In this document: positions 1 through 50,464 of the stretch, one piece after another
How positions within the stretch are numbered: position 1 is the first letter of the stretch
How the letters are laid out: each line of letters starts with the position of its first letter
Assembly: GCF_963921235.1 (NCBI RefSeq)
Contig: NC_086097.1
Location: 173,106,001-173,170,000 of the forward strand
Origin: Mobula hypostoma
Taxonomy: Eukaryota
Direction of reading: 5' to 3'
Length of the DNA stretch: 64,000 nucleotides
The notes under the pieces: generated by a model
Seen by the model: only the letters and a program-made list of their open reading frames with translations
Database searches by the model: none
What the model was told of the DNA's origin: nothing
Translations under genes and position numbers: made by a program

Positions 1-1397
1 TATGGTAACTTTTACACTTTTTAGGCTCTTGAAGGTTGCATCAATGCAAGATGTTGTTGAAGCAACTAACTACAGTTAAGGTTTCTCGATGTCTCTAAAG
101 GATCAAGTAAAATGTATTCTTCTTCTAAATCTGAGTAAACAAGATTGTCTAACCATAAAATGGAAAAGACAAACACAGTTATTCCTCCCATCTAGCTTGA
201 CAGAAGATTATTTGCTCAAATAGATATGGTCCACTCTGAGTTATAAGGTAGAGCAAAGATTGTTTTGCACTGTCGTAAACACAACCTATCTCCACCCTCT
301 GGAGAAAAATAATCATAATTCTCCACTACGATGCAATTTTATTTCCAAACCAGCAACTCTTGTGGTTTTTGTCAGTAAGAACAACCAATTTAGTGCCAAA
401 TTATGGACGACTCTACACAGTAGACTTGCACCCATAGAATCTGGATTTAGAACTGCCAGCATTAACATCACATGGATCCTTAGTAGCTAGCAGAAGCAAA
501 GATTATGTCTCCAACAGTCCGGCTGTATTAAAACTTAATTAGAGTTGAAAGTAGAAAAAGGAGTTAACAGCACTCTCTTAATTGGCTTACTTAAAAACTT
601 AGCAGTAAGGTGCTGTCTTTCTCTGCTTTGCTGAATACATATAAAATAAAATAATTGTTGTTCCCACTGGATAGCTTGTGCAATAATTAAAAGGGCTACA
701 GGAATTTGGCAAACTGAAGAGTACTGGGGATTACATAATTGCATTTTCTGCCCAAATGGTTCAGACTAAGCATAAAAAATGGGTTAACAAAAATTAATAC
801 AAAGATAACTGTAAAGGAATGTACAAACTTTGTATAAACTGGATAATGGACTTGCTAAACCAAATATATTTGGCTATATCTTTCAACAAATGTATTATGC
901 ATTTGCTTTCTTGATTTCTTAAAACAAAGAAAAAATATGAAATGACTGCTAAATCCTTGTGAAGAAGTTTTAGTGGAAATAATATGTGTTTGATATTATC
1001 ATAGAGTTTTGGAAAGATTAAAACAAATCGAGCAAATAACTGTGACCCCTCTAGGGTGCGCTAGAACACTGGGAATTACAGAAAAGGATAGAGGATGGAG
1101 TGTCAGCAGATGAGGAAATTTTATGACCATAGTCTTTAAGATCAGAAATGTCAAATTTAATGTATTTCAGGATAGCAGTTGCTTAGCAAAACCTCTGCAG
1201 AATAATGAACACCAGCAGCTGTCACAGCACCTCAACTATATAAAAAGGCTATACCCTTAACACTGTTTCAGGAGTTACAGTGCAAAGATAAACCTCTCTT
1301 TGGTAAGAATATCATTCAACTTTGCTGAAAAATACATTTAAGTAAAAAATATTTTTTGAATAAATGAATGATGGGAATGTCATTACAACAAAAATAA

Positions 1398-1850
1398 AAA
1401 CAACAGGAATTCTGCAGATGCTGGAAATTCAAGCAACACACATCAAAGTTGCTGGTGAACGCAGCAGGCCAGGCAGCATCTCTCGGAAGAGGTGCAGTCG
1501 ACGTTTTGGGCCGAGACACTTCGTCAGGACTAACTGAAGGAAGAGTTAGTAAGAGATTTGAAAGTGGGAGGGGGAGATCCAAAATGATCGGAGAAGACAG
1601 GAGGGGGATGGCTCTTCAACTTTTCGACCACATTTTGACTCAGACTCACTATCACAGCCATATATCCATCCCTCCCTCTCCTGTCTTCTCCTATCATTTT
1701 GGATCTCCCCCTCCCCCTCCCACTTTCAAATCTCTTACTAACTCTTCCTTCAGTTAGTCCTGACGAAGGGTCTTGGCCCGAAACGTCGACTGCACCTCTT
1801 CCTAGAGATGCTGCCTGGCCTGCTGCGTTCACCAGCAACTTTGATGTGTG
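1398..1850. mobile_element. Palindromic (head-to-head) Penelope-like-derived short element, family A
   Basis: Inverted arms about 1435-1611 and 1666-1852 with a 54-nt spacer; 15-bp direct repeat ttacaacaaaaataa at 1383-1397 and 1851-1865 (TSD); hammerhead motif in each arm. The Penelope-like assignment is inferred from the hammerhead and inverted architecture. Confidence 0.85.
1755..1792 (+). ncRNA. Minimal type I hammerhead ribozyme motif (intact core)
   Basis: UAGUC (helix I) CUGACGA A GGGU-CUUG-GCCC (helix II) GAA ACGU (palindromic helix III) C / GACUG (helix I partner). GUC cleavage triplet, predicted cut after 1787. Confidence 0.75.
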
Positions 1851-4214
1851 TTACAACAAAAATAACATGTTTTTACTGTTTTTTATGATATTCATGAACA
1901 CTAAAGGATAAACTGGACTGAGCATATCTGATGACAAGTAAGTCACCAATGATGATGTAAACAACACACAACCTGCAAACCTGAGTGGGCAGGGGAAATA
2001 CAATTTACACTTCTTCAAACATTCTGGTTTGTGCTTTATCTGTCAGTAGTGAAATGCATCCCTCAACAATAGTCAACATAAGAACCTGAAGGAGACAGTT
2101 TGGCTGATTACCCCAGCCGATTCGAAGGTTGAAGTTTAACCTTCAGCAGCCTTCCGGTGCTATTCAATGAGACTGAACAACAACACACTATCAGCTGAGA
2201 GGGAGCTCTGCAGATCCTAGCTGTGGTACACTCTAGTGTCACAGGTGGCTTACTTTGCCATAAGTTATAATGCATAATTCAATGTTAGTGGAACCAACAC
2301 TCCCAACTGTACCTCTAAAGAAAAATAAGCTGCTTCTCACATGTGCCTGAGACTACAGAAATATTTTGAATATCTAATTTCTGAATCAATCTAGACTTGG
2401 TGAAACAGAAGATTTATCTTCAACATATGCAATTGAAGATATGCTATTCATAACATTCACTGAACTGTAACAATACTAAATTCTGAAAATAATCAGACAG
2501 AATTACATACATCCATTCCCATGTATCTCAAATGTCTGTTTTGGAACAAGGAACAATCAATCTTCCAGCAGTTAATTGCTGTACTTTTTTTTCCCCTGCA
2601 GTAGTTCTGATATATTTGAGTAGGAACCTGATGCTGATCAGATAGCCTGGACTAGACCAGTCAACTAAGGACATTGTTCAGGATTGTGACCTGAAACAAA
2701 AACCCAAGTAAGAAAAGTCAAATTCTTGGGCTTTAGTGATAAGGCCAACAATTCTCAGTCCTGATGAAGAATATTGGCCTGAAATGTTGACTGTTACTGG
2801 AGGCTAAGATTTTATTTATCTTGGTGTTTAATTTACTGGATTCATAACTAGAGGCCAGAACTAGTGATTCCCATCATAGCAACTTATTCACAGTATGTGA
2901 GCACTACTGGCAAAGATGCCATTTATTGTTCATTACTAATTTCCCTTGACCTATGGAGGCAATTAAAATCAATGATGTCAATGGGTCTGAAGTCACATAT
3001 AGGGTAGACCAAGTAAGATTGGTAGATTGAGACTCCTGAAGAACATGAGTAAATCAGGTGGGGTTTTACAAACATCCAGTTATTACATGGTCATCATCTT
3101 GGCTTGATTTTGCTCTGTAATTATTTGAGTTTAAATTCACAAGTCAACATTGTGGGATTTAATCTCATGTTCCAAGATTGATGGTGGAAGCCTTTTCTGC
3201 TAGCCATTAACTTTATCACTATTCTATCTATAAACTATCTGTTGGACCTATCAGCAGGCCAAGCAGCATGTGTGTGAGGAAAGGAATTTTCAACGTTTCA
3301 GATCGAAGCCTTGCATCAGGGTCCAAAACATCAACAATCCCTATCCTCCTATAGATGTTGCCCAAGCCAATGTGTTCCTTCAGCAGATCTTTCGTTGCTC
3401 CAGATTTCAGCATCTACAGTTGCTTGCGTCTTCACTGTTGTATATAGTCTAGACTGAAAAGTTAATAACAGCAAAGGTGATTGTAAATTGGCAGAATGCA
3501 TAAGAAACATCTCATCTGTTAAAGTTCTGCAGGTAAGAAGGGAACCTTCCTTACCCTTTCTAAGCCATAAATGACTTCATGTGCACTGATGTTCTTGACT
3601 TTCAATGGATTTCTCAGTTTAGGGGTAATCAGGGATGCAGTAGCATCCTGATCTCTTGAATGAATACTTCCCTGAACATAGGACATTAACATGTTTCTGG
3701 ATCAACAACCCTAGCATCCGGATTACTAGACTAGTAACCTAACCACTATTATATACATATCCTGGACTTCTACTTTTCACTTCACAGAGAAATATTCTCT
3801 GATGTTAAATATAGATAACAGACAGAGAAAGGAAACTTCAAGACAAAGCAACATATATGAAAGGGATAAAGAGAAAAAATAACTACATGTGTATAGCACT
3901 TCTCATAGTTCGGAATGTCCCACCTGCACTTTACAGCCAAAGAAATACAAAGCGCATAGATGGATGTGAAAAAGGAGACATGCAGCAGCAGAGAAATTAG
4001 TCAGGAAAGTCAGACAATTCCAGCAGTTTCCCTCGTTCCAAATTAGGTTCCAATCAATCAAGCTATGTTGTGTAAAGTCAAAACTTCATGGCCATTTGGT
4101 CAGCGCTCGTCTACTTTATTGTGTTTTTCTTCACGGCAGCTGGCTATGTGAACTTCTTGTGCTCACTAACCATATTACAAAAAAACTTTACCCATTGCCT
4201 AGGGGAACCATGCA

Positions 4215-10245: not shown

Positions 10246-11372
10246 GGAATCAAGCAAATAGTTTATTTTTTAAATTGCAATTGAGAGATATGGTCTAGTG
10301 GAGTGGCCATTGTTGGACTGGGGTCTAAAAACAGAGAGGGAACTTAGAGGCTTTGACTCAAGAGGCTTCGATGAAAAGAGGCTGAGGCCAAAGAAACAGG
10401 TAAGAAGGGTAGGTTTTTCTTTTCGTTATTGCTGATTTGGTCTTGGTTGCTCATAGTACAGTACAGGCAGGATGGAAGATATGGCAGTGGAATGGTCCTC
10501 CTATAGGTTGTGGGAATTCATGGAACCTGGTGGTCTCCCTTTTGACTATACCTGTGGGAAGTGCATCCAACTCCAGCTCCTGAAAGACTGCATTAAGGAG
10601 CTGGAACTGGAGATGGATGAACTAAGGATCACCCAAGAGGCAGAGTAATTGATAGGTAAGACTTTTAAGCAGGTGGTTACACCCAGAGTGCAGAATTCAG
10701 GGACTAGATAGGTGAGCACTGAGAGAGATAAAGGGAGAAAGAAAATACAGGGTTCCCCTTTGTGACCATTCCCTTCAGCAAAAGGTATACCCCTTTGGAT
10801 ACTGCTGAGAGGGATAGCCTATCTGGGCAAGCCAACAGTAGCAGCCAGACTAATAGCGCTGTGGTCAGCTTTGAGTTTCAGAAGAGTAGGGTGAAGTCAG
10901 GGGAAGCAATAGTCATAGGGGACCCGATAGTTAGGGGAACAGATAGGAGATTCTGTAGCAGCAAAAGAGACATCAGGATAGTGTGTTGCCTCCTGGATGC
11001 TAGGGTCCAGGATGTCTCTGAGTAGTTGCAGAATATTCTTGAAAGGGAGGGTGAGCAGGCGGAGGTCGTGGTACATATTGGTACCAATGACATAGGAAGG
11101 AAAGGGGTAAAGGTCCTGCACAGTAAGTTTAAGGAGTTAGAAAGGAGGCTGAAGAGCTGGACCTCCAAGGTGGTCATCTCCAGATTACACCCAGTGCCAT
11201 GAGCTAGGTAAGGTCAGAACAAGAAGATACCACAGACGAATGAGTGGCTGAGGAGATGGTATAGGGGACAGGGTTTCAAGTTCTTGGATCATGAAACCTT
11301 TTCTGGGGAAGGGGAGACCTGTACATTTGGGACAGGTTGTACCCGAACTGGAAGGAAACCAATATCCTGAGA

Positions 11373-11463
11373 AGGGTCTCGGCCTGAAACGTCGACTGCG
11401 CCTCTTCCTATAGATGCTGCCTGGCCTGCTGCGTTCACCAGCAACTTTGATGTATGTTGCTTG
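11373..11463 (+). mobile_element. Short single-arm family A insertion inside CR1 ORF1
   Basis: 12-bp TSD aatatcctgaga at 11361-11372 and 11464-11475; insert matches the family A arm from hammerhead helix II onward. Confidence 0.85.
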
Positions 11464-11669
11464 AATATCCTGAGAGGAAGGTTTGCTAATGCTGTTGGGG
11501 AAGGTTTGAACTAGGTTTGGAGCAGTGTGGGCACCAAGTGAAGAGGCAGAGGTTGGGGCAGTTGGCGCACAAGAAGGGACAGATTGTAGTGAGTTTGTGA
11601 GGAAGGATAGGCAGATGATAGACCAAAGATGCACTTAACCAGATGGTTTGAGATGTCTCTATTTTAATG

Positions 11670-20039: not shown

Positions 20040-20183
20040 CTCTGACATTTGGTCTGACACCACCACTCCAAGCATATTGGCTTCTATCAGCTGTTGTAAG
20101 AGCTGTACTTGAGCTACACTGAGGAAGAAATCCAGACTTGTGGTAACGTTGACTTCCAGTGAATGGCCGCACACTACTATTTC
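20040..20183 (-). CDS. VPS13B: VPS13B internal coding exon (144 nt, phase 0 to phase 0)
   Basis: accattgtAG|GAA ATA GTA...TCA GAG|GTaagc. Translation EIVVCGHSLEVNVTTSLDFFLSVAQVQLLQQLIEANMLGVVVSDQMSE matches recalled human EILVCGHSLEVNITTNLDFFLSVAQVQLLHQLI. This frame is not in the ORF track. Confidence 0.95.
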
Positions 20184-30284: not shown

Positions 30285-30482
30285 TCTCTCAGTTTCACCT
30301 ATCACCTACCACCTTGTATTTCTTCCTCCCCTTCCCCCACCTTCTTCTTCTTTTCCTGTCCTGATAAAGTGTCTCAGCCCGAAATATTGACTGCTTATTA
30401 TTTTCCATAGATGCTGCCTGGCCTACTGAGTTCCTTCAGCATTTTGTGTGTGTTGCTCTAAATTCCAACATCTGCAGGTTTT
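30285..30482 (+). mobile_element. Older family A-related Penelope-like short element
   Basis: Pyrimidine-rich leader, decayed hammerhead (cctgataaagtgtctcagcccgaaatattgactg), then gatgctgcctggcctactgagttcc...catctgcag. Confidence 0.7.
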
Positions 30483-30934
30483 CACATCCTGTGTGTTACT
30501 AGTGATCACACAAAGGGGATAAATTTCAAGCAGGTCTTCAAACACTCTGATGCAAATGATGTCTTTTGGGAGTTAAGAATGTTTTGTATAGAATTAAAGA
30601 ACATTTTCAAAGACTGCATAAAATCCAAAAGAGAATTGAATATTCCATAACCTGATTTAGAAAGCGATTTTGGCAATATAACCATCAAAACTGGATTTAA
30701 TAGAGGCTTCACATGGATGAAGGGTTTATGAGGGAGAAAGTGTTTCTACTGATGAAGGATTGATAACTGGAGGAGATAAATTTAAGATAGCCAATGGAGA
30801 GTTGGATATACTTTCAGGTTGCAGCTTGGTCAGATCCAAAATATACTTCATGAGAAGGAAGTAGAGACATTGTTTGAGATGACTTAAGCCAGGGGGTTCG
30901 TCCAACATCTTACAAATCCCAAAGACTCTCTCAC

Positions 30935-31138
30935 CTACTGGCCATATTCCATTCCAGTGCTGGATTCTGATAATTCCTTTCATTTTCTGCACAAAGTCCT
31001 CCTCTGCTAACTTCCTTTTCAGGCTTTAGCTGATCCCAGAGGGCTGTTCCAATGGTAATGGATTGCAGGTCTACTTGGTATTGTCTGTCTTCAACTTCGG
31101 ATCCTGGGTCTCGCAATATTCCCAAATTCAGAGCTTTC
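30935..31138 (-). CDS. VPS13B: VPS13B internal coding exon (204 nt, phase 2 to phase 2)
   Basis: Minus strand reads ttttttatccaccacAG|G AAA GCT...GCC AGT AG|GTgaga. Translation KALNLGILRDPGSEVEDRQYQVDLQSITIGTALWDQLKPEKEVSRGGLCAENERNYQNPALEWNMAS matches my recollection of human VPS13B (RALNLGILRDPGSEIEDRQYQIDLQSINIGTAQW...QNPALEWNMAS). Splices in frame to the next exon. Confidence 0.95.
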
Positions 31139-31893
31139 CTGTGGTGGATAAAAAACAGTGAGCATTCTATCTGTATCCAAACATTTAACAGAATGCCTAA
31201 ATAAAACAGCAAATCATCCTAAATATCCCAGTGAAGTGGGTAGTTAAGGGAGAAATACCATTAAATATTTATTGAAAAAGTGACCTGCGTTGTCTAGACA
31301 TTGGACTAATCCCCACATGCTTTCTCTCTGTAAGTCACATATAAGAGTTACTTTGCACAGATTTGATGATGCTCATAATTGTTTCTGAGTGGAACAGTTG
31401 AACCTGGGCAATTCTGAGCGTGATTCCCCCAAAAGGCGACGGCAGGCATGTACATGATACAACATCCTTTATTTCTTCCACTGCCTGCTTAAATTTGAGC
31501 ATCAAGGCAAATCTAAAATCTTTGTTGTCAATTGATGAGATAAAAATAGGAGCACGTCAGTTTATGGTTCAGGAATGAGATGGCAATTGAAATTGATAAA
31601 TAGTTTATTATTGGCACAGATACAGATGCACAGTGAAAAAGTTTGCTTTGCATGCCATCCATACAGATCACTTCATCACTTCACTGCACTGAGATAGTAA
31701 ATGGGAACAAAAACAACAGAAAACAAAATAAAATACTGCAGTTACAGTTGAAATGCAATGCAGCAAAAAATAAGTTGCAAGGGCTAAGACATGGTAAATT
31801 ATGAGGTTAAGGGTCCATCTTTTTATAAAAGATGATAATTCAATTTGTCTTATCATAGTGGGATAGAAGATGTCATTGAGCATCCTTTTAGAC

Positions 31894-31974
31894 CAAAGGT
31901 TCCCAAGCTGGGGTGCACAGACCCCTCAGTTAATGGTAGGGGTCCACAGCATTAAAAAAAGTTGGGAGCTCCTG
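31894..31974. mobile_element. 81-bp hAT (Charlie-like) MITE
   Basis: Imperfect TIRs caaaggttcccaa / ttgggagctcctg; 8-bp TSD ttttagac / ttttagag. Sits inside a minus-strand Rex 3' remnant (about 31585-32120). Confidence 0.7.
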
Positions 31975-34019
31975 TTTTAGAGTTTTATTTCTACTGCTTG
32001 AAGGGAGGAGGGAGAAGGGAGATGTCCTGGGTAATTGGGCCCTTGATAATTTTGGCTGCTTTACTGAGGTAGTAAGAAGTGTAGAGAGAGTCTATGGAAG
32101 GGAGGTTGTTTCATGTGAGCTGCACTATCACACTGAAATTCCACCAATAGCATCTCCCAATTACACCTTATAATGGGCAGCTACAGTTATATAGTTTAGT
32201 AAATGCAATATTTTAAAATCTATTGTGAGTTGCACACAATAATCACGAGCCCTTTTACCCACCTGCACCTCACAATTGCTTTGTACCTTTGTACTCCTCA
32301 TGGTACAGGAGTTGATCAGATCAGAGGTCTGTCACACACCACAACGAACTGGATTATACATGGAGAGAATGTTTCCATTAATGGGATAGTCTAGGACCAG
32401 AGGATAGAGACTTGGAATAGAAGGACATCCCTTTAACCAGAGAATAGCAGATATGTCAAATTCATTGCCGCAGATAGATGTGGCATATTTAGAGGGGAGG
32501 TTGATAGGCTCCTGCTTAGTGTGAGTACCAAAGATTATGGGGAAATATCAAGAGAAAGGGGTTGAGAGGGAAAATAAATCAGCTATGATTAAATGGCAGA
32601 ACAGACTAGTGGGCCAAATGGCCTACTTCTGTTCCTATGACTTATGATCTTATGGCCCTGGACACACTAAGGAGCATGAAACACCCACCCCAAAACATTC
32701 ACTTCCACAGCGGCCTTGGTTGTCACTATACTATGCTACCAAGGTGCACACTTATCCCACAATAGTCAGCATGGCAGTTTTGCAGCAGCTCCAATTCTGA
32801 ATGCAGCCATCACAGTGCTTTGCGTGTCAATTCCCATTGCGCTGCTTTTAACATACTGCCCAGTTCTGTGAAACCTCTAAGGAGATCTAGATGGACAATA
32901 ACTCTGTACACAACATACTGTATATTCAGCAAATCACAAGAGGGTGCACTTCAATTTCCAGGCATATATGCCTGAAATTATCACTGCATACAGTTCATAC
33001 CATTAGAATTTGTTTGCTTAATTCCCAATTCACAACTGTACAAAAGAAGGTACTTTGTTTATAAAAATACCAGTCCTTAAATATTTCAAGATGTGTTTAA
33101 CATTTTATAAACTAAAAATGTTTCACTTATTTTTCTCAGGTGATCCCATTACAAAGATGATATCTTTAGTTTAGAACAAAACTGTATTATGTTTTGATTT
33201 AAGATATGGTAAACAGAAGAATTGTTAAGCAGATCAGTTTTGCAGCTAAAGTTTTATAGATTAAAAAAGATAAGTAATTAGAAAAGATTGATCAAGATTA
33301 ACATAAACTGTGTTACGAAAATTTTGTCATTTAATGCTAAGCATTCAATGCTTCAATGATGAGCTCACAACCAATATGAGCTCATGCAACAATGGATTGG
33401 TTTTTGATTTTCTCTTCTATGCCTAGAAGGGTGGTTAAAGTTGAGCTGTTAACACACTGAGTCTCAATTCTTTCAGATCAAATTATTTCATGAGGTTCTG
33501 GCAACATAGTGGTTATGAGATTAAACTAAGATCCAGGCCAGGACATGAACCAGAATCAGGTTTATTGTCACTGACTTAAATGACATGGAATCTGTTGTTA
33601 TGTAGCAGAAGTACAGTGCAATATAGCACTATAGTATATGATTTTGAATCCGACCCCACCATCAACTTCACGAAGTTATATGTCTGGAATTCTACAAAAG
33701 CTAATAAATCTGCTGTTCATAACATGGCTTCATCTGTCTTTGAAGAATAAATGAAGACCGATGACTTCTTTAATATCAGTTCAGTCCACAGGCAAGACTC
33801 TTATTATCTGATCACTGATCTGCTTAATTACTCACGTTTTAAGCCACCTACATTATTCTAATGTAGCTCACCTTACAACCCAGCACAATATAGTTTTCTG
33901 GATTCAACATGAGTTCAACTATTTTAGAAGGTGGTTTTATTTTGCACCATGTCTGGACCATCTTTTTCTTCTTTATTTCTTCCATTACCAACACCCTGTA
34001 TTCTACTGTCATATAGGAC

Positions 34020-34560
34020 ACGAATCAGGCCACACTTGGAGTACTGTCAACAGCTTTGGGCCTCTTAGTTCAGAAAAGAATGATTGTTATTGGAGATCCC
34101 AGAGGAGGTTCACGATGATGATTCCTGGAATGAAAGGGTTAACATATGAGGAGCATTTGGCAGCTTTGGGCCTGTACTCACTGGAATTTAGAAGAATGCG
34201 TGGGTATCTCAATGAAACCTACTGAATGTTGAAGGACGAGATAAGGTGGATGTGGAGAGGATGTTTCCTCTGGTGGAGGTATCCAGAACTACAGGGCACA
34301 GCCTCAAAATTGAGAGGCGACCTTTTAGAACAGAAGTAAGGAGGAATCTTTTTAACCAAGGAGTAGTGAATCTGTGGAATGCTCTGACAGACTGCGGTTG
34401 AGGCCAAGTCCACAGGTATACTTAAAACGCAAGTTAATAGATTCCTGATTGGTCAGGGCATCAAGGGATATGGTCAGAGGGCAGGTGTATGGGGTTGAAT
34501 GGGATCCAGGATCAGCCATAGGCTGAATGGCTTAATTCTGCTCCTATGTCTTATGGTTTT
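34020..34560 (+). mobile_element. CR1 3' fragment
   Basis: RPHLEYC, IPGMKGLTYEE, GLYSLEFRRMRG remnants; 3' UTR and tcttatgg tail. Confidence 0.8.
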
Positions 34561-36464
34561 TTATTTGATCTACCTTACTTTCCAATCCATTATACACTTT
34601 CTCTTTTGTTTGATTTTTCCTTTCTCATTTTATCTGCATCTTAAAAGTTGTTGGGGCAGAAAATCACCCTCAATTATTTGCTTTAAGCATTGTGTGGCAC
34701 CTTCCGTTTCTCAATTTCAGCTTTCCCTCTGTAATTAGTATTAGTTTCTTTTTCAGAACTTGATAATCTTCCTCATGTTCAGGACAAAGTGTGCAAAGTC
34801 ATACAGCTCAGAAACAGGCCCTTCAGTCCACCACATCCATGTTAGCCATCAAGTACCCATAGTACAGTATTAATCCTAACTAGCCTATAGCCTGCAATGC
34901 CTTGCCTTGGCAATTCAAGTCCTTGATGAGCTACTTCTTACACGTTGTGGGAGTCTCTGTCTTCCCTCGCTCCTTAAGCAGTTCCACTGCTTTCTCAGAA
35001 AAAAAAATTGCCAATATGATTGTGTGAAGGAATCTCTTCATTCAGCATGAAGACATGGGCAACTACTTCTGCACACACAAGCATTGCATTTGGAAATATG
35101 CTGATGAAATGCCAGGGCACCTTTTCACCATAAGAAAGATTGTTCAATTTGAATCCAGAGCACTGTGACTTGCACAGCAAAATTAATCAAAGGATGAGGA
35201 AAATAAAATTTGTCAAAATTCCCAAGAGTTCACTCATTTCTACCGACACCCAATGAACTGCATAAGGCAGCACTGATTTTTCCATATGGTTAACTGTTGA
35301 ACCAATAGTTTAGAATTCATTATTTGAAATCTTTGTGGCTGCTTTCAAGTTTACCAATAGTCCAATTGCCACCCCCACTTCTGTAAAAAAAAACATCTCC
35401 AGCCTTCCAACCCTCTGACCCTTTACTCTGAGCTGCGCCAATTCTGACAACCTGTGCTGCATCACTGGTAGCCATGCACCCAAACTCTGGCATTCTGTTT
35501 AATTATATACCTCTCTGAACAAGTTTTGGGTCTTCTATGGCATGCATTGCATCAGAGGATCTACAGTCAACATCCTGTCTGCTAAAACTTCTAAGAAGTA
35601 CAATGATCTTCACCCCATTACTTCAGTCTCCTTTTACAGTGTTAAAAGTGCTCTATGAACATAAGCTGTTGGATCACCCTCAGCTCTTCTTTTCAGTAAT
35701 GCTCAGCTGCATCATTCAGTGTTGCTATTCTACCCGGTGCATTTGTTGCAACCACTTTAGGCCTCCTTGCACCAGGAATGGTGAACCCCTGCGCATTGCA
35801 GGCTTGCACTCAAGCACATTGTTTCACATACACACAGAGCACCAGTGCACTGCAGCAGCAATGACTCGGAGTTGTGCACTGCCTTTAATCTAAAGGAAAA
35901 ATCCCAAGGCATTTTACAGGCAAGCATATGGAAAACAGACACCAGACCATAAAGAAAGAGATGTGGAAGGGTAGCTGAAAACTTGGTCAAAGGGATGTAT
36001 TTAAAAAGGCTTTTTAAAGGAGAATGGTGAAGGAAGAAATATAAAGAGGAAATTCCGCAAAAGTCAAATACACATGGTCGAAGTAATTGGCACAAGCATT
36101 AAGATTAAATTCAAGGTCCATAAGATAAGGAAAATAAAGACCTGGGGTTCATATGAATGGGGAGCAAAGAATAAAGTTTGAGGTGGAGACAGCATGGTTG
36201 AACATAATTTAAGATGAATGCAGGATGAGATATATGCAGCAACACTAAATCTGCATTTTATTTTCTTTTTACTAGCTCGATGTAATAATGTATGACATGA
36301 TCTGTTTGGATTGCATACAAACAAAATCTTTTCACTGTATCACAGTGCACATGACAATAATAAACCAACAGCAATACCAATACCATTGTTTTGGCCAAGT
36401 TAAATGTATGAGATATGTAAGGGGTTCCTTCTTTTATGTTACTGCTAAGGTTGATAAAATGGCT

Positions 36465-36680
36465 ATAACCATAAAAATTGCTGGTGAACACAGCAGGCCA
36501 GGCAGCATCTATAGGAAGAGGTACAGTCAACGTTTCGGGTCGAAGGGATGAAGGGTCTCGGCCCGAAACGTCAACTGTACCTCTTCCTATAGGTGCTGCC
36601 TGGCCTGTTGTGTTCACCAGCAATTTTTATGTGTGTTGCTTGAAATTCCAGCATCTGCAGATTTCTTCGTGTTTGCGCTA
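36465..36680. mobile_element. Palindromic family A element inside the solo LTR
   Basis: Arms about 36470-36543 and 36557-36631; full 3' end on the plus arm; repeat ataaaatggct at 36454-36464 and 36681-36691 (likely TSD). Both hammerheads are truncated at the junction. Confidence 0.85.
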
Positions 36681-37327
36681 ATAAAATGGCTTCTTTGTTA
36701 TGTTATAATAAAATGGCTTCTCTGTAATGTTAACTGCTGAGTTAACGGTAGCAGCTTGTTTGGGTTATAATTACTGATAACGAGAATTGTATTCATTTGT
36801 TAACCAATTGGGATAGATGTTATTCTTTCTTGTGTGTCTGTAAGCTACTGTTTTCGCGGGCTTTGGGGAGAAGGCGTGATGGGGACAGAGAGAGGAGACG
36901 CGATGAGAGATATGCTGTAAGATGGGCGAGGATTGGACCCCGAGCGGGAGTCCAAGGCCCAGGGTCTTCGGCGAGGAGAGGAGACAAGGACAGATTTGTG
37001 TGGAGCGTTTGGTCGACCACCAAGGATGGTCCCATTCAAGGGTCGGCGAAGTTCGGAGGACATCGACTGAAGGAAAGGGAGACCCAGTTTTCTAAGAGCT
37101 CCAACTAATTATTTGTGCACAGAACTGATAGAGTTACTGACTTGGCACTTTTGTTCTACTTGTTTCTACTAACCAATCACCAAGAAATACTTATAAAGTG
37201 TAATCATTTAATCGCATATGGTGTGCTGTCTGTTATTTGGCATGGTGGGGTACATCACACAGCATCTACACAAACTTGATTACCCAGTTTGGTGGGGCCA
37301 AAGGCTGCTTCCCCTAGACGAGGTCGA

Positions 37328-37806
37328 AGTCATAGTCATGGTCATACTTTATTGATCCCGGGGGAAATTGGTTTTCGTTACAATTGCACCATAATAATAA
37401 ATAGTAATAGAACCATAAATAGTTAAATAGTAGTATGTAAATTATGCCAGTGAATTATGAAATAAGTCCAGCACCAGCCTATTGGCTCAGGGAGTCTGAC
37501 CCTCCAAGGGAGGAGTTGTAAAGTTTGATGGCCACAGGCAGGAATGACTTCCTATGATGCTCTGTGTTGCAACTCGGTGGAATGAGTCTCTGGCTGAATG
37601 TACTCCTGTGCCCACCCAGTACATTATGTAGTGGATGGGAGACATTGTCCAAGATGGCATGCAACTTAAACAGCATCCTCTTTTCAGACAACACCGTGAG
37701 AGAGTCCAGTTCCATCCCACAACATCACTGGCCTTACGGATGAGTTTGTTGATTCTGTTGGTGTCTGCTACCCTCAGTCTGCTGTGGGTAGCAGACACCA
37801 ACAGAA
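37328..37806 (-). mobile_element. Rex1/Babar-type LINE 3' fragment with 21-bp 5' foldback
   Basis: Minus ORFs RINKLIRKAS and HPLH...KSFLPVAIKLYN; (TATGAC)n-like tail at about 37328-37346; 37753-37773 and 37786-37806 are exact reverse complements. Confidence 0.8.
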
Positions 37807-38301
37807 AGTGAGCTGAGCAAGCCTGAGGCTTACCAGGAGGCTACAGATACCTTCCGCTTGGACCACTGATGCATCCTTTCCTGCACTACACTCGCTATTG
37901 TGACTGGCCCCTTATGAATCCCCACTGAGCTTCACCCAATCACTTCAGTCTCCTTTAAGAAGAGTGAAAACAGCAGATTTAAAGGTAAAACAGATGATCC
38001 CCATTAACCAATATGAGTGCTAAGGAGGTGGAGATAGAAAAAGATTGATGGAATAGGAGGTGGGACTTCTGAACAAGTTGAACAGTAGGGAGAAAAGAAT
38101 GGATAAGCTACAAGGATAAAGGAGTAAATCAAGCCAACAAAGATGCTAGTTTCTAAATAAGTAGAGGAACAAAAATATCGGATTTCAAATCATGAGTACT
38201 TAAAATTATACAGTATCTAAAACCCCCTTCCATGTTAGAATTAAATCTTGCATAGAAAATGCACTAACTTGTAAATGGCTTCTCCAAATATATAATAAAA
38301 T

Positions 38302-38515
38302 CACAGACACAAGAGATTCTGCAGATGATGGAATCCTTGAGAAACACACACAAAATGCTGGAGGACCTCAGCAGCTCAGGTAGCATCTATGGAATGAACT
38401 AAATGGTCAATGTTTCAAGTCAAGAGAGAGGCCTGATGAAGTATCTCGGCTTGAAAAGTCGACTGTTATCTCCCTTCACAGATGCTGCCTGACAGTTCTT
38501 CCAGTATTTTGTATG
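38302..38515. mobile_element. Older palindromic family A-related element
   Basis: Full minus arm (gagattctgcagatg...cacaaaatgctggagg...gcatct) followed by a plus arm with decayed hammerhead cctgatgaagtatctcggcttgaaaagtcgactg. Similar older copies at about 39085-39250, 40005-40172, 41595-42090, 45305-45420 and 49425-49605. Confidence 0.7.
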
Positions 38516-39350
38516 CTTTATATACAATCTGTTACATTTACAATATATTCCAGAGAGTTTGGTACACTCAAAACAGGAGCCTAGATAATTTCATTGCTTG
38601 AAAAGGCACAGCGGACTAGTGAGTGTGGAGAGGCCAATGTGTGTCTCCTTGTAAAACTCTGCTGTACACAAAAGATTAGCCTCATTCAACTAAACACAGG
38701 CCATGAATAAACCAGCTGAGGAACTTGTAAATCATGGGTGCCTGGACTAAAGCTGAGAGTCGCAGTTAGAGAAATAAAGAAATAGATTTTCAGTCCAGAG
38801 TAATGGAAACCTCAAAGATTACTTCCAGGCTTTGGTAGGAATATCATCATCTGGGAGGACAGTTAGGGAGCTGTGGGATCAGCATGGGGCCAGGATCCAG
38901 TAGTAAAAGATCAGAGAAAACAGGGAGGATGATGGTACAAGGAATTAAATGGGCCCTACCTACAAGAGGCTACAAGCATATTTGGATTACCATTTGACCT
39001 TCCAAGTCATTAAAGACTCTCACCATTTGACACATGCCCTCTTTTTGTTACTAACACTGTGAGGTACAAGAGCCAGAAGTCATAAACACAAGAGTTTCTA
39101 CAGATGCTGAAAATCCAGAGTAACACGCACAAAATGCTGGAGGAACTCAGCAGGTCAGGCAGCATCTACGGAGAGGAACATCGACGGTTTATTTCTCTCC
39201 ATTGAAGCTGCCTGATTTGCAGAATTCCTCCAGAATTTTGTGTGTGTTGAACAGGAGCCAGAAGACTCACACTCAACATTTTAAGAACAGCTTCTTCCTC
39301 TCTGCCTTCAGATTTCTGAACAGTCAATGAATGCACGAATATTATCTCAT

Positions 39351-39536
39351 TATTCATTTTTTGCACTTTATGTTAATTTTCATAACTTATAGTAACTTTT
39401 ATGTCTTGTCCTGTACTTGTTGCAAAAAAACACATTTCACAACTATTCATTTTTTGCACTTTATGTTAATTTTCATAACTTATAGTAACTTTTATGTCTT
39501 GTCCTGTACTTGCTGCAAAAAAACACATTTCACAAC
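39351..39536. repeat. 93-bp tandem duplication (2 copies, 1 mismatch) in a Rex-type 3' UTR
   Basis: 39351-39443 is repeated at 39444-39536; only tgttgc versus tgctgc differs. Confidence 0.95.
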
Positions 39537-42207
39537 TTATGTCAGTAATAATAAACCTGATTCTGATTCTGATGCCAGCTCCCAGCAGAGAAATCCTGTC
39601 AGTTGCCAATTAAGCTACCAGCACATCTTTGTGAAGTGGGAGGAAACCAGAACATCAGGAAGACACCCATGCAGTCACAGGGAAATCACACTAACTCCAT
39701 ACAGACAACTAAGGTCATAATTGACTGCAGGTCCCTGCAGCCATGAGACCGCAGCAATTGCCGTGCCATCGATAAGTGCCATGGCAAATGCCCAAGACAT
39801 CCAAGTAAGTATTTTCCTTAAGCATGTGGATATGGAAACAATTTAAAAATCCTTAGCTGACGATATTGGAAAGACCGTATTTGATTTTGTGACTAGATAT
39901 TTCACACAGACATTGGGAGATACCTGGGATTTGCTGCCGGACCAGGTGATGGAATGAGTTAGCCATTCCAGTTAAGAGAGAATCAGATTGGCACTTAAAT
40001 AGCAAAAGCAAACTGCTGGAGGAAGTCAGCAAGCTAGGCAGCATCTGCAGAGGTTATTAGACTGTCAACATTTCAGGCTTGGCCTGTCCGTTTCCCTTCA
40101 CAGATTCTGCCTGAGATCATCCAGCAGTTTGTTTTTTGCTACAGATTTCAGCATCTGCAGTTCTGTGTGTCTTCAGGCACTTCAATAAACAAGGCACACA
40201 AGAATATGGCCTTAATGCAGGTGAATGGGATTAGTGTAGATGGTCAAGATGGTCATGGAGGTTGGTAGGGCCTGATTCTGTGCTGAACAATTCTATGACT
40301 CTACAAGATCTGTTTATATCTCTATTGTTACTTTTGCTCTGTCTAAAGTATTTTCTTCTTTAACTATGTGGACACAGTAATACCGTACTAATGCTGTGAA
40401 GAAATTATTAAACATTACCAGTGTTAACAAGATCCACTTGAATTGATCTCATAGGAAATGACAGAGCCATTAATAATTCTACAGAAGAAATTAAAGTGTT
40501 ATTCTATTTCCTATCTAATATTGTACAGGTGTATTTATATAACAGATGGCTCTATTTACATATAAGCACATAGCTTGGATTTCACACTCACATATGGGTT
40601 TTGCAACTTAGACTCAGTCCATAGATCAAGATCTTTGGGGAATAATTACAACTAATTCAAACTTGTGCATATCTGTAGCTGCCTGATCATTGGGTATTAC
40701 ACAGCAACTTACTAGACCAAGGGTCTTGCAGTCAACCATGTACTCTGGAACCCGAACAAAGGTGGCTTTATACTAAATTGTTTAAGTAATGGTTAGTTTT
40801 TAAAATTTGACCCCAAGCAACAACATTTGCAAGATTTATTAGTTCTGTCTTGTGCAATTATCCAGCATAAGTATTTAACGAAACAGTTATATATTTTAAT
40901 TGTTCCTTAGCCATGCTTCTTGGTAATGCAGGAACAGCAACATCAACAATTATCATTTCATCATTTATCATGTATCATTTTTTTGTTATAACACCATTAA
41001 TCTCCAAGCTATGTTCCAATAAACACACAGTGTATTTGAACTTTAAAAAGGGCAGTATACTCTGAGAAAGATATTTAAAACTATAATTTCCTACAATGGC
41101 ACTGTACAGGAAAGCACGTTCATCCTGGCCACTCAATCTTGGCTAACATAGACATTAGGGGCCAATAATAGGAACCTGAATGTGAAAAATCATACAGATT
41201 TGCCTTCGCCAAGCACAGCAGAAGTATGAAGAAAGGAGAAGTTGACTGATTTAAGAAAACATTTCCAAATAAAATCTGTGTAGATTATAAGTGTTATATA
41301 TGTGGTCAAAACCAGAGTGTCATTCTTTTACCATAATCCTTGATTAATTCTTTTACCTTAAATGTGTTACTGGCTATAAATACCTCTGGAATTAGTGTAT
41401 TTTAAACACACTATATTCTGTGTTCTATTTTTGTTTTCCCTTTGCTCTACCTCGATGTACTTGGTTATGGAATGATCACTCTAGTGGCATGCAACAAAAG
41501 CTTCTCGTTCTATCTGAGTACAGTACATGGGGCAATAATGAGCCAGTTCTGAATTACTTAAACACATTGCAGAGCTAACCCATGATGTGAGGCACAAGAG
41601 ACAGCAGATGATGGACCTTGAAGCACAGAATTAACTGCTACAATAACTCAGCAGGTCCTGAAATATCTGTAGAGGCAATGGGAGAGTTGATGTTTCAGGT
41701 CAAGACCTCATAACACATGCAGGAATTTGATTTAATTTGTGATATTAGGAGCCAGTTACACTACTTATTCTTTCATTTAAACGCTAAAAATTACACAAGC
41801 AGGAAATATAAAATAAAACAGAAAATGCTGGAGATATTTGGCAGATCGAGCAGCATCTGTGGCAAGAGTAACAGAATTAATAAAAGTAGAAAATGCTTGG
41901 AAACCTCAATAGATCAGCCAGCAATTGTGGGAAGAGTGACAAATTAATATTTCAGTCTGAGATCCTCTAAAGGCTCTAAAATGTTAATTGTTTTTCTTTT
42001 CACACATACTACCTGACCAACTGAGTTCTTCCAGTTTTCTGTTTTTGTCTCAGATTTCCAGCATCTGCCATTTCTATTTTTATTTTCAGAAAAACAGAGA
42101 TAATGTTTCAGGTCAATGTCAAAGGTTATTGACCTGAAGCACTGGGCAAACTAACACAGTTTCCCTAGAGATTGACTCCAGAGGGAAGGTAAATTAGCTG
42201 CAGCACA

Positions 42208-43400
42208 TCCATAAGACCATAACACATAAGAGACACAATAGGAGAATTAGCCCATTCAGCCCGTCAAGTCTGCTGCCATTCCAACATGACTGATTTATTA
42301 CCCCACTCAACCCCATTCTCCAGCCTTCTCCTTGTAACCTTTGACACTCTGATTAATCAAGAACCTATCAATCTCCACTTTAAATATATCTTATATAATA
42401 TGACTTGGCTTTCTCAACCATCTGTGCTAGGTTCAATACTCTCTGGCTAAAGAAATTCTTCCTCATCTCTGTTCTAAATGAACTTCCCGCTATTCTGAGG
42501 CTGTGCCCTCTGGTCCTAGACTCCCATACTATAGGAAACATCCTCTCCACATCCACTCTACCTAGGCCTTTCAATATTTGATAGGTTTCAATGAGATTTC
42601 CCCCGCGTTCTTCTAAACTTCAAAAAATACAAGCCCAGAACCATCAAATGCTCTTCGTACATTATTAACCCTTTCATTCCCAGAATCATTCTCGTGAACC
42701 TCCTCTGGACCTTCTCCAATGCCAGCACATTTTTCTAAGATAAAGGGCCCAAAACAGCTCACAATGCTCCTAGTGTAGTGTAGTCTTAGCAATGCTTTAT
42801 AAGTCTCAGCATTACATCCTTGCTTTTTATTCCCTGTTTAGAAAATAGTCCATGCCTTTATTCCTCCTACCAAACTGCATGGCTGTACATTTTCCCACAC
42901 TATATTCCATCTGCCACTTCTTTGCCCATTTTCCCAATCTGTTGAAGTCCTTTACAGACTCCCTGCTTCCTCAACAGTAACTGCATCCCCACCTTTCTTT
43001 ATATCATCCGCAAACCTGGCCATAAAGCCATCAATTCTGTCATCCAAATCAGTGATATACAATGTGAAAAGAAGTGGTCCCAACACAGACCCCTGTGGAA
43101 CACCACTAGTCACTGGCAGCCAGCTAGAAAAGCCCCCCTTTATTCCCACTCTTTGCCTCCTGCCAGTCAGCCAATCTTCTATCCATGCTGGGAACTTTCT
43201 GTAATACCATGGGCTTTTATATTGTTAAGCAGCATTATGTGTGGCAACTTGTCAAAGGCCTTCCGAAAATCCAAATATAGAACATCCACTGACTTTCCTT
43301 TCCTGCTTGATATTTCCTCAAAGAATTCCAACAGATTTATCAGGCATGATTTCTCCTTAGGAAACGTGCTGACTTTGGCCTATTTTGTCATGTGCATTTA
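42208..43400 (-). mobile_element. Degraded CR1 RT and 3' end
   Basis: Minus ORFs GVPQGSVLGPLLFTLYI..FADD and RTRGHSLRI..FRTEMRKNFFSQRV; 3' UTR and tail at about 42208-42350. Confidence 0.85.
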
Positions 43401-44289
43401 AATAAACAAATAGATAAATAAATAAATAAATTCTGTATCCAAGGCTGTTAAACAGGCACATGTTCCTACGCTGTACTGTTCTATGTTCTATATTCTACCT
43501 AATATTTGCATCAAGGATGAGGTGAAAGTCAGATATCACCATTCTGTTGTTGTACTCAGCCACAAGTCTAGGGCTGAAGTAGCACTCAGCTTTATGCATG
43601 AAATACATAGAGCTTACCTTGATTGGAAGGATTCTGTTTATTTCCCCAACTGCCTTTGGGTGACACAAGTAATTTCTACTTTTGCCAAAATCCAGTGACT
43701 CACTTTGCATAATCTTTTTCATGGTTACTTTAATCTCTAGTACATAATAATGTTTTAAGAACTTTTTTACAATATTTTTTAGTATCAGAGAGAATTATAG
43801 AATCATAGAACAACATGGAAACAAGGCCCTTTGGTCCTCCTTACTCATGTTGACCATGTTGCCCATGTCCCTCTAAGCCTTTCTTTATCCTTGTCCTTAT
43901 GTTTTTTTACTTGTTTAAATAAGTTCAAAAATTCTCACATTAGTGACAGCAGTCTACAGAAGCAGAGTCACAGGAAATGATTCCCATGGCTCAGTAACAG
44001 CTTACAGACCAACGCACTTGGTAAAAAACCAAGATCTCTGTGCCTTTCTGGATTTACTGATGACTGATCCGTATTTATATAATACACAATAGTATTTTGC
44101 ATTTTGATAATTCTCATTAAACAAAGACAATGTGTGTCTCTCTGTCATTTCAATGTCTGCCCCTCAGTCTATTTCTGTTCTCGTATAAAGATTCCCAAAC
44201 TTGTTCAGTCGTTCCTGACTGGTGTTGTTCCTGTGAGGTACTCACTACTGTTGGTGGAGTCCTTTAGAAATATCTGAACTTTATCAAGA

Positions 44290-44785
44290 TCCTCAATGAT
44301 CATGGAAAAGGGGCAGGAAAGATTCATGATAATATTACCAGGACTGGAAGGTTTGAATAATGAGAAGAGGCTGGAAAGGCTAGAACATTTTTCCTTGGAG
44401 CAGAGGGAGCAGGAAGATGACATGTTGAGAAGTATAAAATCATGCTGAGCAAAAATAAAATGAATGGTCACAATGCTATACCTAGAGCAGGAGAGTCTAA
44501 ATTAGATAGTATAGGTTTAAGATGAGAGAGGAAAGATTTAAAAGGGACTTAAGAGGAAACTTTTTCCCACAGGTAGTGGTAATCTGAAACAACCTGCTCG
44601 TGCTATGCACAAATTATAATGTTTAAAACACATTTGAACAGTACATGAATAAAAAAAGGTTTAGAGGGTTATAGGTGAAATGTGGGCAAATGGGACAATT
44701 CAAATAGACATTTTGGTTTGCATGGATGAGTTGAGCCAAATGAGCCTGCTTCCATGTTATATACAGTAACTCCATGACTCTATGA
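44290..44785 (+). mobile_element. Old CR1 3' fragment
   Basis: RF..ILPGLEGL..EKRLERL..FSLEQR remnants; tail ccatgactctatga. Confidence 0.7.
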
Positions 44786-45423
44786 CCAATAAACAGGTTT
44801 CTTTGGAATCCATTTTCTAATCTTCTGCTGACTGGTTTAGAACTGAAATGATGGCCTACCTCCTAATTACTTCTAGAACATGAATGTACAGACTTAAGGA
44901 AGAAATCAAAAACGTGGCAGCCAATATGTCAAGAAATCTTGACACACAGAAGACATTGCCATAAGCTGTATCACCACAAGTTCTCTCAGCTCATATATAG
45001 TACATCCTAAACTTTAATAGTTACATTATTCAAAGCCTTTAGTTATTGTCAGGTTACCAAATTATCATTTACTAGGTAATTATCAATCTACTAGGCAGTG
45101 CATAAGCATACAATGAATTTACTTTTGATCAGTGGGTGGAAAGGCTTCAGCCACGCATGGTATACATAGATTTTGAGATCCTATCATCCTATGCTTGCCC
45201 CATGACTTGTACGGTTCTAGACCTGACACTTAAGGAAAAGGATTAGGGACTTAAGTTATCTAGGAAGCACAGAAATAGACAGACAATATCAAAAATATTC
45301 AATACCAGTCCTTTGACCTGAGATGTTAACTATGTTTCCCTTTCTAAAGATGCTGCCTCACTTGCTGACTGTTGCTGGCATTTTCTATTTTCATTATAGA
45401 TTTATAACATCTGCAGGATTTTA

Positions 45424-47017
45424 CAGTGGCATGTAAAAGTTTGGGCACCCCTGGTCAAAATTTCTGTTACTGTGAATAGCTAAGCGAGTAAAAGATGACC
45501 TGATTTCCAAAAGGCATAAAGTTAAAGATGACACACTTCTTTAATATTTTAAGCAAGATTACTTTTTTATTTCCATCTTTTACAGTTTCAAAATAACAAA
45601 AAAGGATAAGGGCCTGAAGCAAAAGTTTGGGCACCCTGCATGGTCAGTACTTAGTAACACCCCCTTTGGCAAGTATCACAGCTTGTAAACGCTTTCTGCA
45701 GCCAGCTAAGAGTCTTTCAACTCCTGTTTGGGGGATTTTCGCCCATTCTTCCTTGTAAAAGGCTTCTAGTTCTGAGAGATTCTTGGGCTGTCTTGCATGC
45801 ACTGCTCTTTTGAGGTCTATCCACAGATTTTCGATGATGTTTAGGTCGGGGGACTGTGAGGCCCATGGCAAAACTTTCAGCTTGTGCCTCTTGAGGTAGT
45901 CCATTGTGGATGTTGAGCTGTATTTAGGATCATTATCCTGTTGTAGAAGCCATCCTCTTTTCATCTTCAGCTTTTTTACAGATGGTGTGATGTTTGCTTC
46001 CAGAATTTGCTGGTATTTAATTGAATTAATTCTTCCCTCTACCAGTGAAATGTTCCCTGTGCCACTGGCTGCAACACAAGCCCAAAGCATGATCGATCCA
46101 CCCCCGTGCTTAACAGTTGGAGAGGGGTTCTTTTCATGAAATTCTGCACCCTTTTTTCTCCAAACATACCTTCGCTCATTGCGGCCAAAAAGTTCTATTT
46201 TAACTTCATCAGTCCACAGGACTTGTTTCCAAAGTGCATCAGGCTTGCTTAGATGTTCCTTTGCAAACTTCTGACACTGAATTTTGTGGTGAGGACGCAG
46301 GAAAGGTTTTCTTCTAATGACTCTTCCATGAAGGTCATATTTGTGCAGGTGTCACTGCACAGCAGAACAGTGCACCACCACTCCAGAGTCTGCTAAATCT
46401 TCCTGAAGGTCCTTTGCTCGTAGCCTTTCTAGCAATCCTACGAGCAGTTCTCTCGGAAAGTTTTCTTCATCTTCCAGACCTCCACCAGTCCTGTTAACTG
46501 CCATTTCTTAATTACATTATGAACTGAGGAAACGGCCACCTGAAAATGCTTTGCTATCTTCTTATAGCCTTCTCCTGCTTTGTGGGCATCATTTATTTTA
46601 ATTTTCAGAGTGGTAGGCAGCTGCTTAGAGGAGCCCATGGCTGCTGATTGTTGGGACAAGGTTTGAGGAGTCAGCGTATTTATAAAGCTTTGAAATTTGC
46701 ATCACCTGGCCTTTCCTAACGATGATTGTGAACAAGCCATAGCTCTAACAAGCTAATTAAGGTCTGAGACCTTGGTAAAAGTTATCTGAGAGCTCAAATC
46801 TCTTTGAGTGCCCAAACTTCTGCATGGTGCTCCTTTCCTTTTTTTCACTCTAAAATTGTAAAAAACAAAAATAATACAATAATCTTGCTTAAAATGTTGA
46901 AAAGAATGTGTCATCTTTAACTTTATGACTTTTGGAGATCAGTTCAACTTCTACTCACTTAACTATTCACAGTAACAGAAATTTTGACCGGGGTGCCCAA
47001 ACTTTTGCATGCCACTC
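45424..47017 (-). mobile_element. Tc1-family DNA transposon, IR/DR type, DD34E transposase pseudogene
   Basis: TA TSD at both ends; about 220-bp TIRs starting CAGTGGCATG(T/C)AAAAGTTTGGGCACCCC, each with an inner direct repeat (about 45621 and 46806). Transposase on minus about 46638-45644: paired-like N-terminus (GEGYKKIAKHFQV), VLWTDE, QQDNDPK, SPDLNIIENLW, with 34 residues between the second D and E; frameshifted in the N-terminal half. Confidence 0.95.
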
Positions 47018-47024
47018 TAATATA

Positions 47025-48450: not shown

Positions 48451-48488
48451 CAGTCGACGTTTCAGGCCGAGACCCTTCGTCAGGACTA
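48451..48488 (-). ncRNA. Minimal type I hammerhead motif, sense to VPS13B pre-mRNA
   Basis: Reverse complement reads UAGUC CUGACGA A GGGUCUCGGCCU GAA ACGU C GACUG; all core nucleotides are present. Confidence 0.72.
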
Positions 48489-48524
48489 ACTGAAGGAAAC
48501 TGAAGGACTAACTCTTCCTTCAGT

Positions 48525-50379: not shown

Positions 50380-50464
50380 TACCGGAGTTTCTGTGGAGGT
50401 ATTATCCAATAAAGAATTCAAGAACTTTCCTAATATTTTAAATCTATGAAGCCGAAAGGGAATA

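Follow-up and report, generated by a model that had tools for sequence, protein, structure and literature searches.

A truncated, two-armed Penelope-like terminal-repeat insert with a hammerhead motif in Mobula hypostoma, and a pairing pattern that favours two-ended priming

Penelope-like elements (PLEs) carry minimal hammerhead ribozymes that are inactive as monomers and weak as dimers (PMC4209133; this and the other cited papers are represented here by extracts). In the anole element PAc (Poseidon of Anolis carolinensis), the protein nicks and extends both target strands, reverse transcriptase (RT) starts at two sites that bound the tail, and hammerhead cleavage is protein-assisted, while core mutants of the hammerhead were without effect on insertion in vitro (PMC11167929); why Penelope elements retain a hammerhead is an open question. 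Inverted pseudo-long terminal repeats (pLTRs) with a tail on one side have been described (PMC3846280, PMC8557442), and their origin is debated between self-priming and resolution by the endonuclease (EN). A CX2-5CxxC zinc linker between RT and EN is found in Neptune and is absent in Penelope/Poseidon (PMC8557442), and the vertebrates sampled so far had Neptune and Poseidon elements only (bioRxiv 10.64898/2026.07.22.740005). Here we analyse a 64,000-nucleotide stretch of the Mobula hypostoma genome (the window; contig NC_086097.1, positions 173,106,001 to 173,170,000), and in particular a hammerhead-bearing insert at window positions 1383-1865.

We are confident that this insert is a truncated, two-armed copy of the pLTR end of an autonomous Penelope-like element that encodes RT and GIY-YIG with a Neptune-type linker, that it likely arose from two cDNAs primed on opposite strands of one staggered cut, and that it is probably inert as a ribozyme at this locus. 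A sequence-only reading of the window had described an insert of about 450 bp with a 15-bp target-site duplication (TSD) and two head-to-head arms, all of which was borne out: the insert occupies 1398-1850 (453 bp) between two exact 15-bp TSD copies, and its arms form a long inverted repeat (1435-1576/1711-1852, 142 nt, 97% identity) and a second one (1563-1611/1670-1718). Aligned over 183 columns, the plus and minus arms show 7 mismatches and a single 6-nt indel. On a 3,514-bp reference unit (L104:3828-7341), the insert reads in the order reversed 3295-3514, open reading frame (ORF) 123-180, then 3290 to about 3477. Its features are as follows.

1383..1397, no strand: left TSD, 15 bp, matching 1851-1865 at 15/15 bases
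1398..1611, minus strand: tail-bearing arm, a 5'-truncated pLTR plus a tail of ~38 nt; reference 3295-3514, 91% identity; ends at site A
1398..1434, minus strand: tail, confined to the tail-bearing arm
1495..1532, minus strand: damaged hammerhead motif, in which position 1507 has G12A, within a CpG, and position 1518 is mismatched in helix II
1610..1667, plus strand: spacer of 58 nt from the 5' region of the element's own ORF; reference 123-180, 88%, E=1e-16
1665..1850, plus strand: tail-less arm, a 5'-truncated pLTR; reference 3290 to about 3477, 94% identity; ends at site B
1755..1792, plus strand: complete minimal type I hammerhead motif with a predicted cut after C1787, from sequence reading, with features as in the extract of PMC4209133
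1851..1865, no strand: right TSD, 15 bp, by direct comparison with 1383-1397

The spacer and the plus arm meet in a 3-nt overlap common to both, and the full-length copies show the same ORF match. Because both arms map to the pLTR of an ORF-bearing element and the spacer is a piece of that ORF, the insert is a stub of a coding element and not a separate non-coding family.

Full-length copies were reached by protein searches with pieces of longer loci. Four loci (L103-L106) hold intact 1,043-aa frames with the repeat on both sides in a unit of 3,514 bp; such frames were present in 4 of 142 scored matches and in 4 of 20 regions selected for long frames or paired hits. These are the copies joined to a GIY-YIG plus RT ORF that the sequence-only reading had suggested looking for. 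Of its two descriptions of the family, the terminal repeat of a Penelope-like element that carries a minimal type I hammerhead stands, and a non-coding or retrozyme-like family falls, as the repeat flanks intact RT plus GIY-YIG ORFs. Counted from the first methionine common to the intact copies, the ORF is 1,016 aa long. Pfam RVT_1 matches residues 507-671 (E=3e-5) and GIY-YIG residues 919-993 (E=5e-4), each under its curated cutoff; between RT and EN lies a CX4CxxC zinc linker (883-891), followed by a CCHH motif in which CxxC sits between VIY and YIG (920-935) with two histidines downstream. The ORF has 483 homologues, the closest named ones among the matches listed being bamboo-shark proteins (68-72%), and of 120 homologues listed, 104 have a recognisable EN core, with the linker ahead of it in 101; a PDB sequence search with the ORF returned nothing meaningful. 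In aggregate, the element shows the hallmarks of EN+ PLEs: a single ORF with RT and C-terminal GIY-YIG, flanking pLTRs arranged as partial tandems, 5' truncation, an inverted partner, a 30-40-bp tail at one end and a TSD. Because the zinc linker is present, the criteria in the extract of PMC8557442 point to the Neptune clade and would exclude Penelope/Poseidon; between Neptune and Nematis, a full-length linker was observed and the assignment is motif-based. No dedicated paper on this family in cartilaginous fish was found in the literature search, Repbase and Dfam lying outside its scope.

Several features of the coding copies are recorded as observations. In one full-length copy (L104:3861-3866), the frame that runs through the hammerhead ends in a TGA overlapping the ATG of the main ORF. 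Some copies have an additional in-frame ATG further upstream, within the pLTR, and the ORF start taken here is accordingly provisional. Many of the near-intact copies at L061-L068 have the same frameshift, located in a C-rich run that separates RT from the zinc linker; the query that retrieved them selected for this frameshift.

Evidence for how the two arms arose comes from 34 inverted pairs that passed an 84% identity filter among all loci collected. Outer ends fell at two places: site A, the tail end (reference 3509-3521 after TSD trimming), and site B, about 38 nt short of it (3466-3482). Thirty of the 34 pairs joined one A end to one B end; the rest comprised 2 A plus short, 1 B plus mid-tail and 1 A plus A. 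Single ends, in contrast, were divided almost evenly (53 A, 47 B and 3 other; n=103). The A+B combination thus occurred in 30 of 31 pairs vs 50% expected from independent choice (p=1.5e-8). In 16 of the 30 A+B pairs, the B arm extended past the A arm on the 5' side by more than 10 nt; because the tail-less arm extends further upstream than the tailed arm, neither arm can be a copy of the other in these pairs. TSDs of 11-16 bp (65% AT) flanked 30 of the 34 pairs. Junction microhomology averaged 0.93 nt at site A (n=28; 0.32 simulated) and 1.58 nt at site B (n=26; 0.35 simulated), means that were reached at A or B in 0 of 2,000 simulations. Inner ends spanned reference 1 to 3457, and spacers of at least 15 nt occurred in 7 pairs, 5 of which had spacer pieces from elsewhere in the element. 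The A+B rule, the independent arm lengths and the priming microhomology favour two-ended priming, and the pairs likely reflect two cDNAs primed from opposite target strands. The sole pair with tails on both arms (L068:551-892) has inverted flanks and no TSD, and resembles part of a larger palindrome.

We infer the following scheme as the simplest reading. The endonuclease would nick both strands 11-16 nt apart, leaving 3' overhangs; one 3' end would prime at site A and the other about 38 nt upstream at site B, each with 0-4 nt of pairing, and both cDNAs would stop early. At 1383-1865, the site-B cDNA would have switched position on the same RNA, to ORF position 180, ahead of end joining, with the hammerhead carried along as a passenger. 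Any activity of the hammerhead in the parent element would depend on dimer formation or on help from a protein, as described for other Penelope hammerheads. No proposal of two-ended priming for Penelope elements was found in the open-access literature searched.

Several points weigh against this interpretation of the insert and its parent. Most loci were chosen by pattern or protein search rather than at random; in an unselected 284 kb there were just 6 pairs, of which 5 were A+B. Some older-subfamily matches are mixed into the single-end set (6 of 14 inspected). No nick-site consensus was found in 30 TSDs, and the candidate consensus hinted at by the TSD at 1383-1865 was rejected as not seen among them. 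Across 27 hammerhead copies from four subfamilies, two-sided change was seen in 0 of 10 helix pairs, 5 of which had one-sided changes. The Neptune assignment, for its part, rests on motifs rather than on a tree with named references.

The plus arm was said to contain every element of a minimal type I hammerhead, and direct reading agrees. Helix I pairs UAGUC (1755-1759) with GACUG (1788-1792), the core CUGACGA occupies 1760-1766, helix II (1768-1779) is GGGU/GCCC with a U-G last pair and a CUUG loop, and GAAA (1780-1783) leads into ACGU (1783-1786) and C17 at 1787; an extra A at 1767, between A9 and helix II, had been overlooked. The arm therefore contains CUGANGA, GAAA, the NUH triplet, helices I and II, the extra base at 9/10.1 and the palindromic helix III that define the minimal type. 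The minus arm does not conform: the reported G12A is present at 1507, together with a second, previously missed defect, a G-to-U change in helix II at 1518. An Rfam scan, a check that the sequence-only reading had proposed, returned no hammerhead family among 20 matches at E<=1; these matches were miRNA-type, hairpin-driven artefacts scoring below gathering thresholds. The ribozyme call therefore rests on motif and context. Because G12A lies in a CpG and is as frequent genome-wide as decay of a non-core CpG (1,247 copies vs 1,065 with the non-core loop change, and 5,457 unmutated), it is ordinary CpG decay and not a meaningful feature, and the hammerhead core decays neutrally in inserted copies.

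Folding predictions concern the insert as a whole. Either strand carries just one arm in sense, and the arm-to-arm hairpin has a predicted energy of about -350 kcal/mol on either strand; read-through RNA at this locus is thus predicted to fold into a long arm-to-arm hairpin burying both motifs. The best predicted fold of the hammerhead monomer differs from the active fold, and, folded locally, neither the hammerhead nor the start-site hairpin was more stable than shuffles (z -0.83 to 0.05).

How the inverted arms arose could be explained otherwise. For the same element, both cDNAs might start at the tail end, with endonuclease or repair trimming the tail from one arm at resolution. The extract of PMC8557442 ascribes the one-sided tail to EN-mediated resolution, and A+B pairs are predicted equally well; we nonetheless judge trimming unlikely, as microhomology is stronger at site-B junctions (1.58 nt against 0.35 expected), as for primed ends, B accounts for 47 of 103 single ends, and PAc RT begins directly at both sites in vitro according to the extract of PMC11167929. 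Inversion by fold-back or self-priming, in which one arm is copied from the other or from an antisense template, was proposed in PMC3846280 (extract) and fits the often neighbouring inner ends of short pairs (3295 vs 3290 in the insert at 1383-1865; within 10 nt in 3 of 30). It is improbable here: each arm has sequence absent from the other in 16 of 30 pairs, and the sense ORF spacer at 1610-1667 is not part of the tail-bearing arm, which therefore cannot have served as its template. These counts contradict a version with a single cDNA, whereas copying from a separate antisense transcript is compatible with them.

Two further alternatives concern what the insert is, and both appear very remote. 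An independent non-coding family (retrozyme, short interspersed nuclear element (SINE) or miniature inverted-repeat transposable element (MITE)) that spreads as a hairpin unit of ~450 bp would account for the many copies, their short length, the TSD and the inverted arms at the ends, and animal retrozymes descend from pLTRs (extract of bioRxiv 10.64898/2026.07.22.740005). Yet there is no fixed unit, inner ends being spread between reference 1 and 3457 and TSD length varying from 11 to 16 bp; upstream sequence is continuous with GIY-YIG and RT; and retrozymes are defined in that extract by head-to-tail tandem units, a structure absent from the insert. Classification as a MITE or SINE was rejected, as the fixed length, constant termini and independence from a coding body that mark these classes were not seen, and so was a non-LTR retrozyme, the insert being an inverted pair continuous with an ORF. 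Equally hard to credit is an active intronic ribozyme acting on a host pre-mRNA, even with a complete plus-arm motif and a likely host exon 18 kb off. The host gene likely lies on the minus strand, so that its transcript would contain the damaged motif as the sense copy; pairing of the arms with each other is predicted, G12 is lost at the neutral CpG rate in inserted copies, and minimal hammerheads are inactive as monomers in the extract of PMC4209133. We therefore retain a pLTR-end stub of a coding Penelope-like element as the account of this insert.

Related copies are abundant, as the sequence-only reading had indicated with its more than ten recurrences. In a profile search of the window (nhmmer, E<=1e-4), about 18 sites gave 26 fragments, and nhmmer returned 66 across the surrounding 284 kb and 0 in the reversed 284-kb control. 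A strict core regular expression matched 5 motifs in the window (4 GAAA and 1 AAAA), and an exact search of the 3.48-Gb genome for a single 34-base form of the motif gave 5,457 matches, against none in the control. Thirty loci with the exact motif had common 3' ends and a 5' side cut at varying depth, the longest continuing into GIY-YIG and RT sequence. The other window copies are listed here.

11365..11472, plus strand: single young copy, starting inside the helix I 5' strand (reference 3383)
36470..36677, no strand: second inverted pair, young family, tail on one arm, 11-bp TSD
48351..48579, no strand: third inverted pair, of very recent age (97-99% to reference), with a 12-bp TSD and no damage to either core
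within 30347..57000, no strand: older related subfamily fragments, about 70-80% identity to reference, for example 30347-30486, 38300-38515, 39079-39249, 40001-40162 and 56726-56966

Truncation points near the hammerhead were also recorded. Among 8 true young-family singles truncated at 3375-3391, 5 start at 3380-3384, which is the 5' edge of helix I and not the cut site; these 5 are the copy at window 11365 and those at L215, L219 (two copies) and L228. No inner end among those listed, a small sample, fell at the predicted cut site (reference 3413), the nearest being 3410 and 3420.

Across three subfamily consensuses, the hammerhead is more conserved than its flanks, as the sequence-only reading had anticipated for the core: 34 of 38 columns (89%) are identical vs 130 of 323 (40%) in the untranslated region (UTR) and 7 of 15 in the linker, a hammerhead figure inflated by the choice of two of the three sets by hammerhead pattern. 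Sets chosen by downstream sequence gave the same hammerhead consensus. The 46 columns downstream are also conserved (35 of 46, 76%), and 94.8% of helix-pair cells are paired in the 27 hammerhead copies that represent four subfamilies. We rejected the idea that a conserved frame runs through the hammerhead, since linker lengths differ by 2 nt between subfamilies.

The core itself varies between lineages. An older ORF-linked lineage (L153-L182), 13% from its own consensus, carries the core change A6C, which has at least 1,826 exact pattern matches vs 3,116 for the A6 form of the same pattern; in one group delimited by its downstream letters, the lineage accounts for 16 of 27 copies, and at 17 of the 30 loci sampled from it a GIY-YIG end stands just upstream on the same strand. 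By analogy with the phage Bcep176 hammerhead, whose A6C version is weak in Mg and much better in Mn (extracts of PMC3088659 and PMC7151607), the change is predicted to weaken cutting in this lineage. A search for A6C hammerhead literature found no retroelement-titled paper. The youngest intact copies carry G10.1-U11.1, as do 98 of 117 young-family copies in a set enriched for ORF-selected loci. A further subfamily, O3 (6,375 exact matches), contains a sub-lineage in which one helix I pair is lost and no compensating change is seen (9 of the 20 copies parsed, from 30 loci chosen by downstream sequence); a compensatory pair hinted at by 2 copies was rejected, the 5' strand being unchanged and the 3' partner changed in 9 of 20 parsed. 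The young family may have regained A6 from a C6 ancestor: the free tree nests it among 14 of 15 C6 copies, but C6 as a single clade is also compatible with the data (p-AU 0.257; 14 vs 30 rows, with the long-branch copy L179 left out). These core variants suggest relaxed catalysis.

A broader scenario is offered tentatively, as one we consider possible but somewhat doubtful. A vertebrate Penelope lineage would have amplified to thousands of copies with a crippled A6C core and the rest of the motif kept, its youngest relatives having A6 again; the motif would be mainly non-catalytic (an RNA 5' end, a splice acceptor or an RT-binding platform), with cleavage optional, and integration would use a dimer that primes on both strands of the target, each strand with its own fixed site on the RNA.

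Sequence features around the hammerhead touch on splicing. A pyrimidine tract plus YAG, resembling a splice acceptor, overlaps the helix I 5' strand in all four subfamilies (window 1750-1757; donor/acceptor region at L209:1188-1196 and 1450-1462), and a donor-like GT stands at the ORF stop in older subfamilies, not in the youngest. In Drosophila virilis Penelope, an intron ends at helix I (extract of PMC4209133). No GT..AG joint from ORF stop to helix I was seen among 15 of 65 joints (contigs of 4 runs), which carries no weight either way. Downstream of the hammerhead, a conserved predicted stem (alignment A1, columns 62-69 with 126-133) encloses site B and reaches the tail, with little covariation.

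The wider setting of the window was surveyed with a Pfam scan that covered 199 of 211 repeat-poor frames. An intron, as the sequence-only reading had it, is plausible, the support being an exon-like minus-strand frame with a sub-cutoff VPS13 match; its peptide presumably resembles VPS13B. An ESM Atlas look-up of this exon gave weak leads to bridge-like lipid transfer proteins, and a PDB sequence search with it gave nothing meaningful. Two long frames are presumably RTs of the long interspersed nuclear element (LINE) type and another presumably a Tc1-like transposase, judging by their translations; an integrase fragment matches Pfam rve and Integrase_H2C2 at scores under the cutoff. Several sub-threshold microRNA (miRNA) matches stem from a separate hairpin at 16695-16862, which is nearly perfect and about 120-160 nt long.

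20040..20183, minus strand: exon-like frame of 144 nt bounded by AG..GT; Pfam VPS13_M E=0.0074, below cutoff, in 1 of 105 frames
11639-13621, 57215-61129, 45644-46351 and 52182-53039: other mobile elements (putative LINE-type RT frames, Tc1-like transposase, integrase fragment)

The element class, the hammerhead motif and the inverted-arm architecture are all already published, and the insert at 1383-1865 is ordinary in kind. The main value of the locus lies instead in what it leads to, the A6C lineage and the two-ended priming pattern. The natural A6, C6 and G10.1-U11.1 versions of one motif, each from an amplified lineage, form a ready test set, and intact, very young ORFs in the genome make two-ended priming testable.

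Compared with the metazoan PLE hammerheads of PMC4209133, as given in its extract, the motif here has the same short helix I, unpaired base at 9/10.1, palindromic 15.2-16.2 and pLTR position, with G10.1-C11.1 in most subfamilies, and the elements share dual motifs on opposite strands 100-700 bp apart and thousands of single truncated copies. Unlike them, the youngest intact copies here have G10.1-U11.1, and one lineage has A6C where the core variant reported there is U3-A8; helix II is 4 bp, in contrast to 7-8 bp in the Schistosoma motifs. Bcep176 has the same A6C change as the C6 subfamily, but it is a single phage motif in the extracts of PMC3088659 and PMC7151607, whereas here the change marks a lineage of vertebrate retroelements that is linked to an ORF and has no fewer than 1,826 exact matches. 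Non-LTR retrozymes (extract of bioRxiv 10.64898/2026.07.22.740005) likewise have a type I hammerhead and pLTR ancestry, but they are non-coding head-to-tail tandems, and the insert is a one-off inverted truncation of a coding element. The Neptune EN+ elements in the extract of PMC8557442 share the single RT plus C-terminal GIY-YIG ORF, the CCHH motif and CX2-5CxxC linker, the pLTRs, partial tandems, inverted 5'-truncated partner and 30-40-bp tail at one end; by the published criteria seen there, no class-level difference from the element here was found. Like PAc (extract of PMC11167929), the element has two putative RT start sites that bound the tail, a hammerhead upstream of them and AT-rich targets. 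Unlike PAc, a Poseidon without the zinc linker whose ORF starts in stem II, it has the linker, its first common methionine lies 36 nt past the tail, and no ATT-like nick consensus was seen. The strict pairing of one A end with one B end seen here is not described for PAc in that extract.

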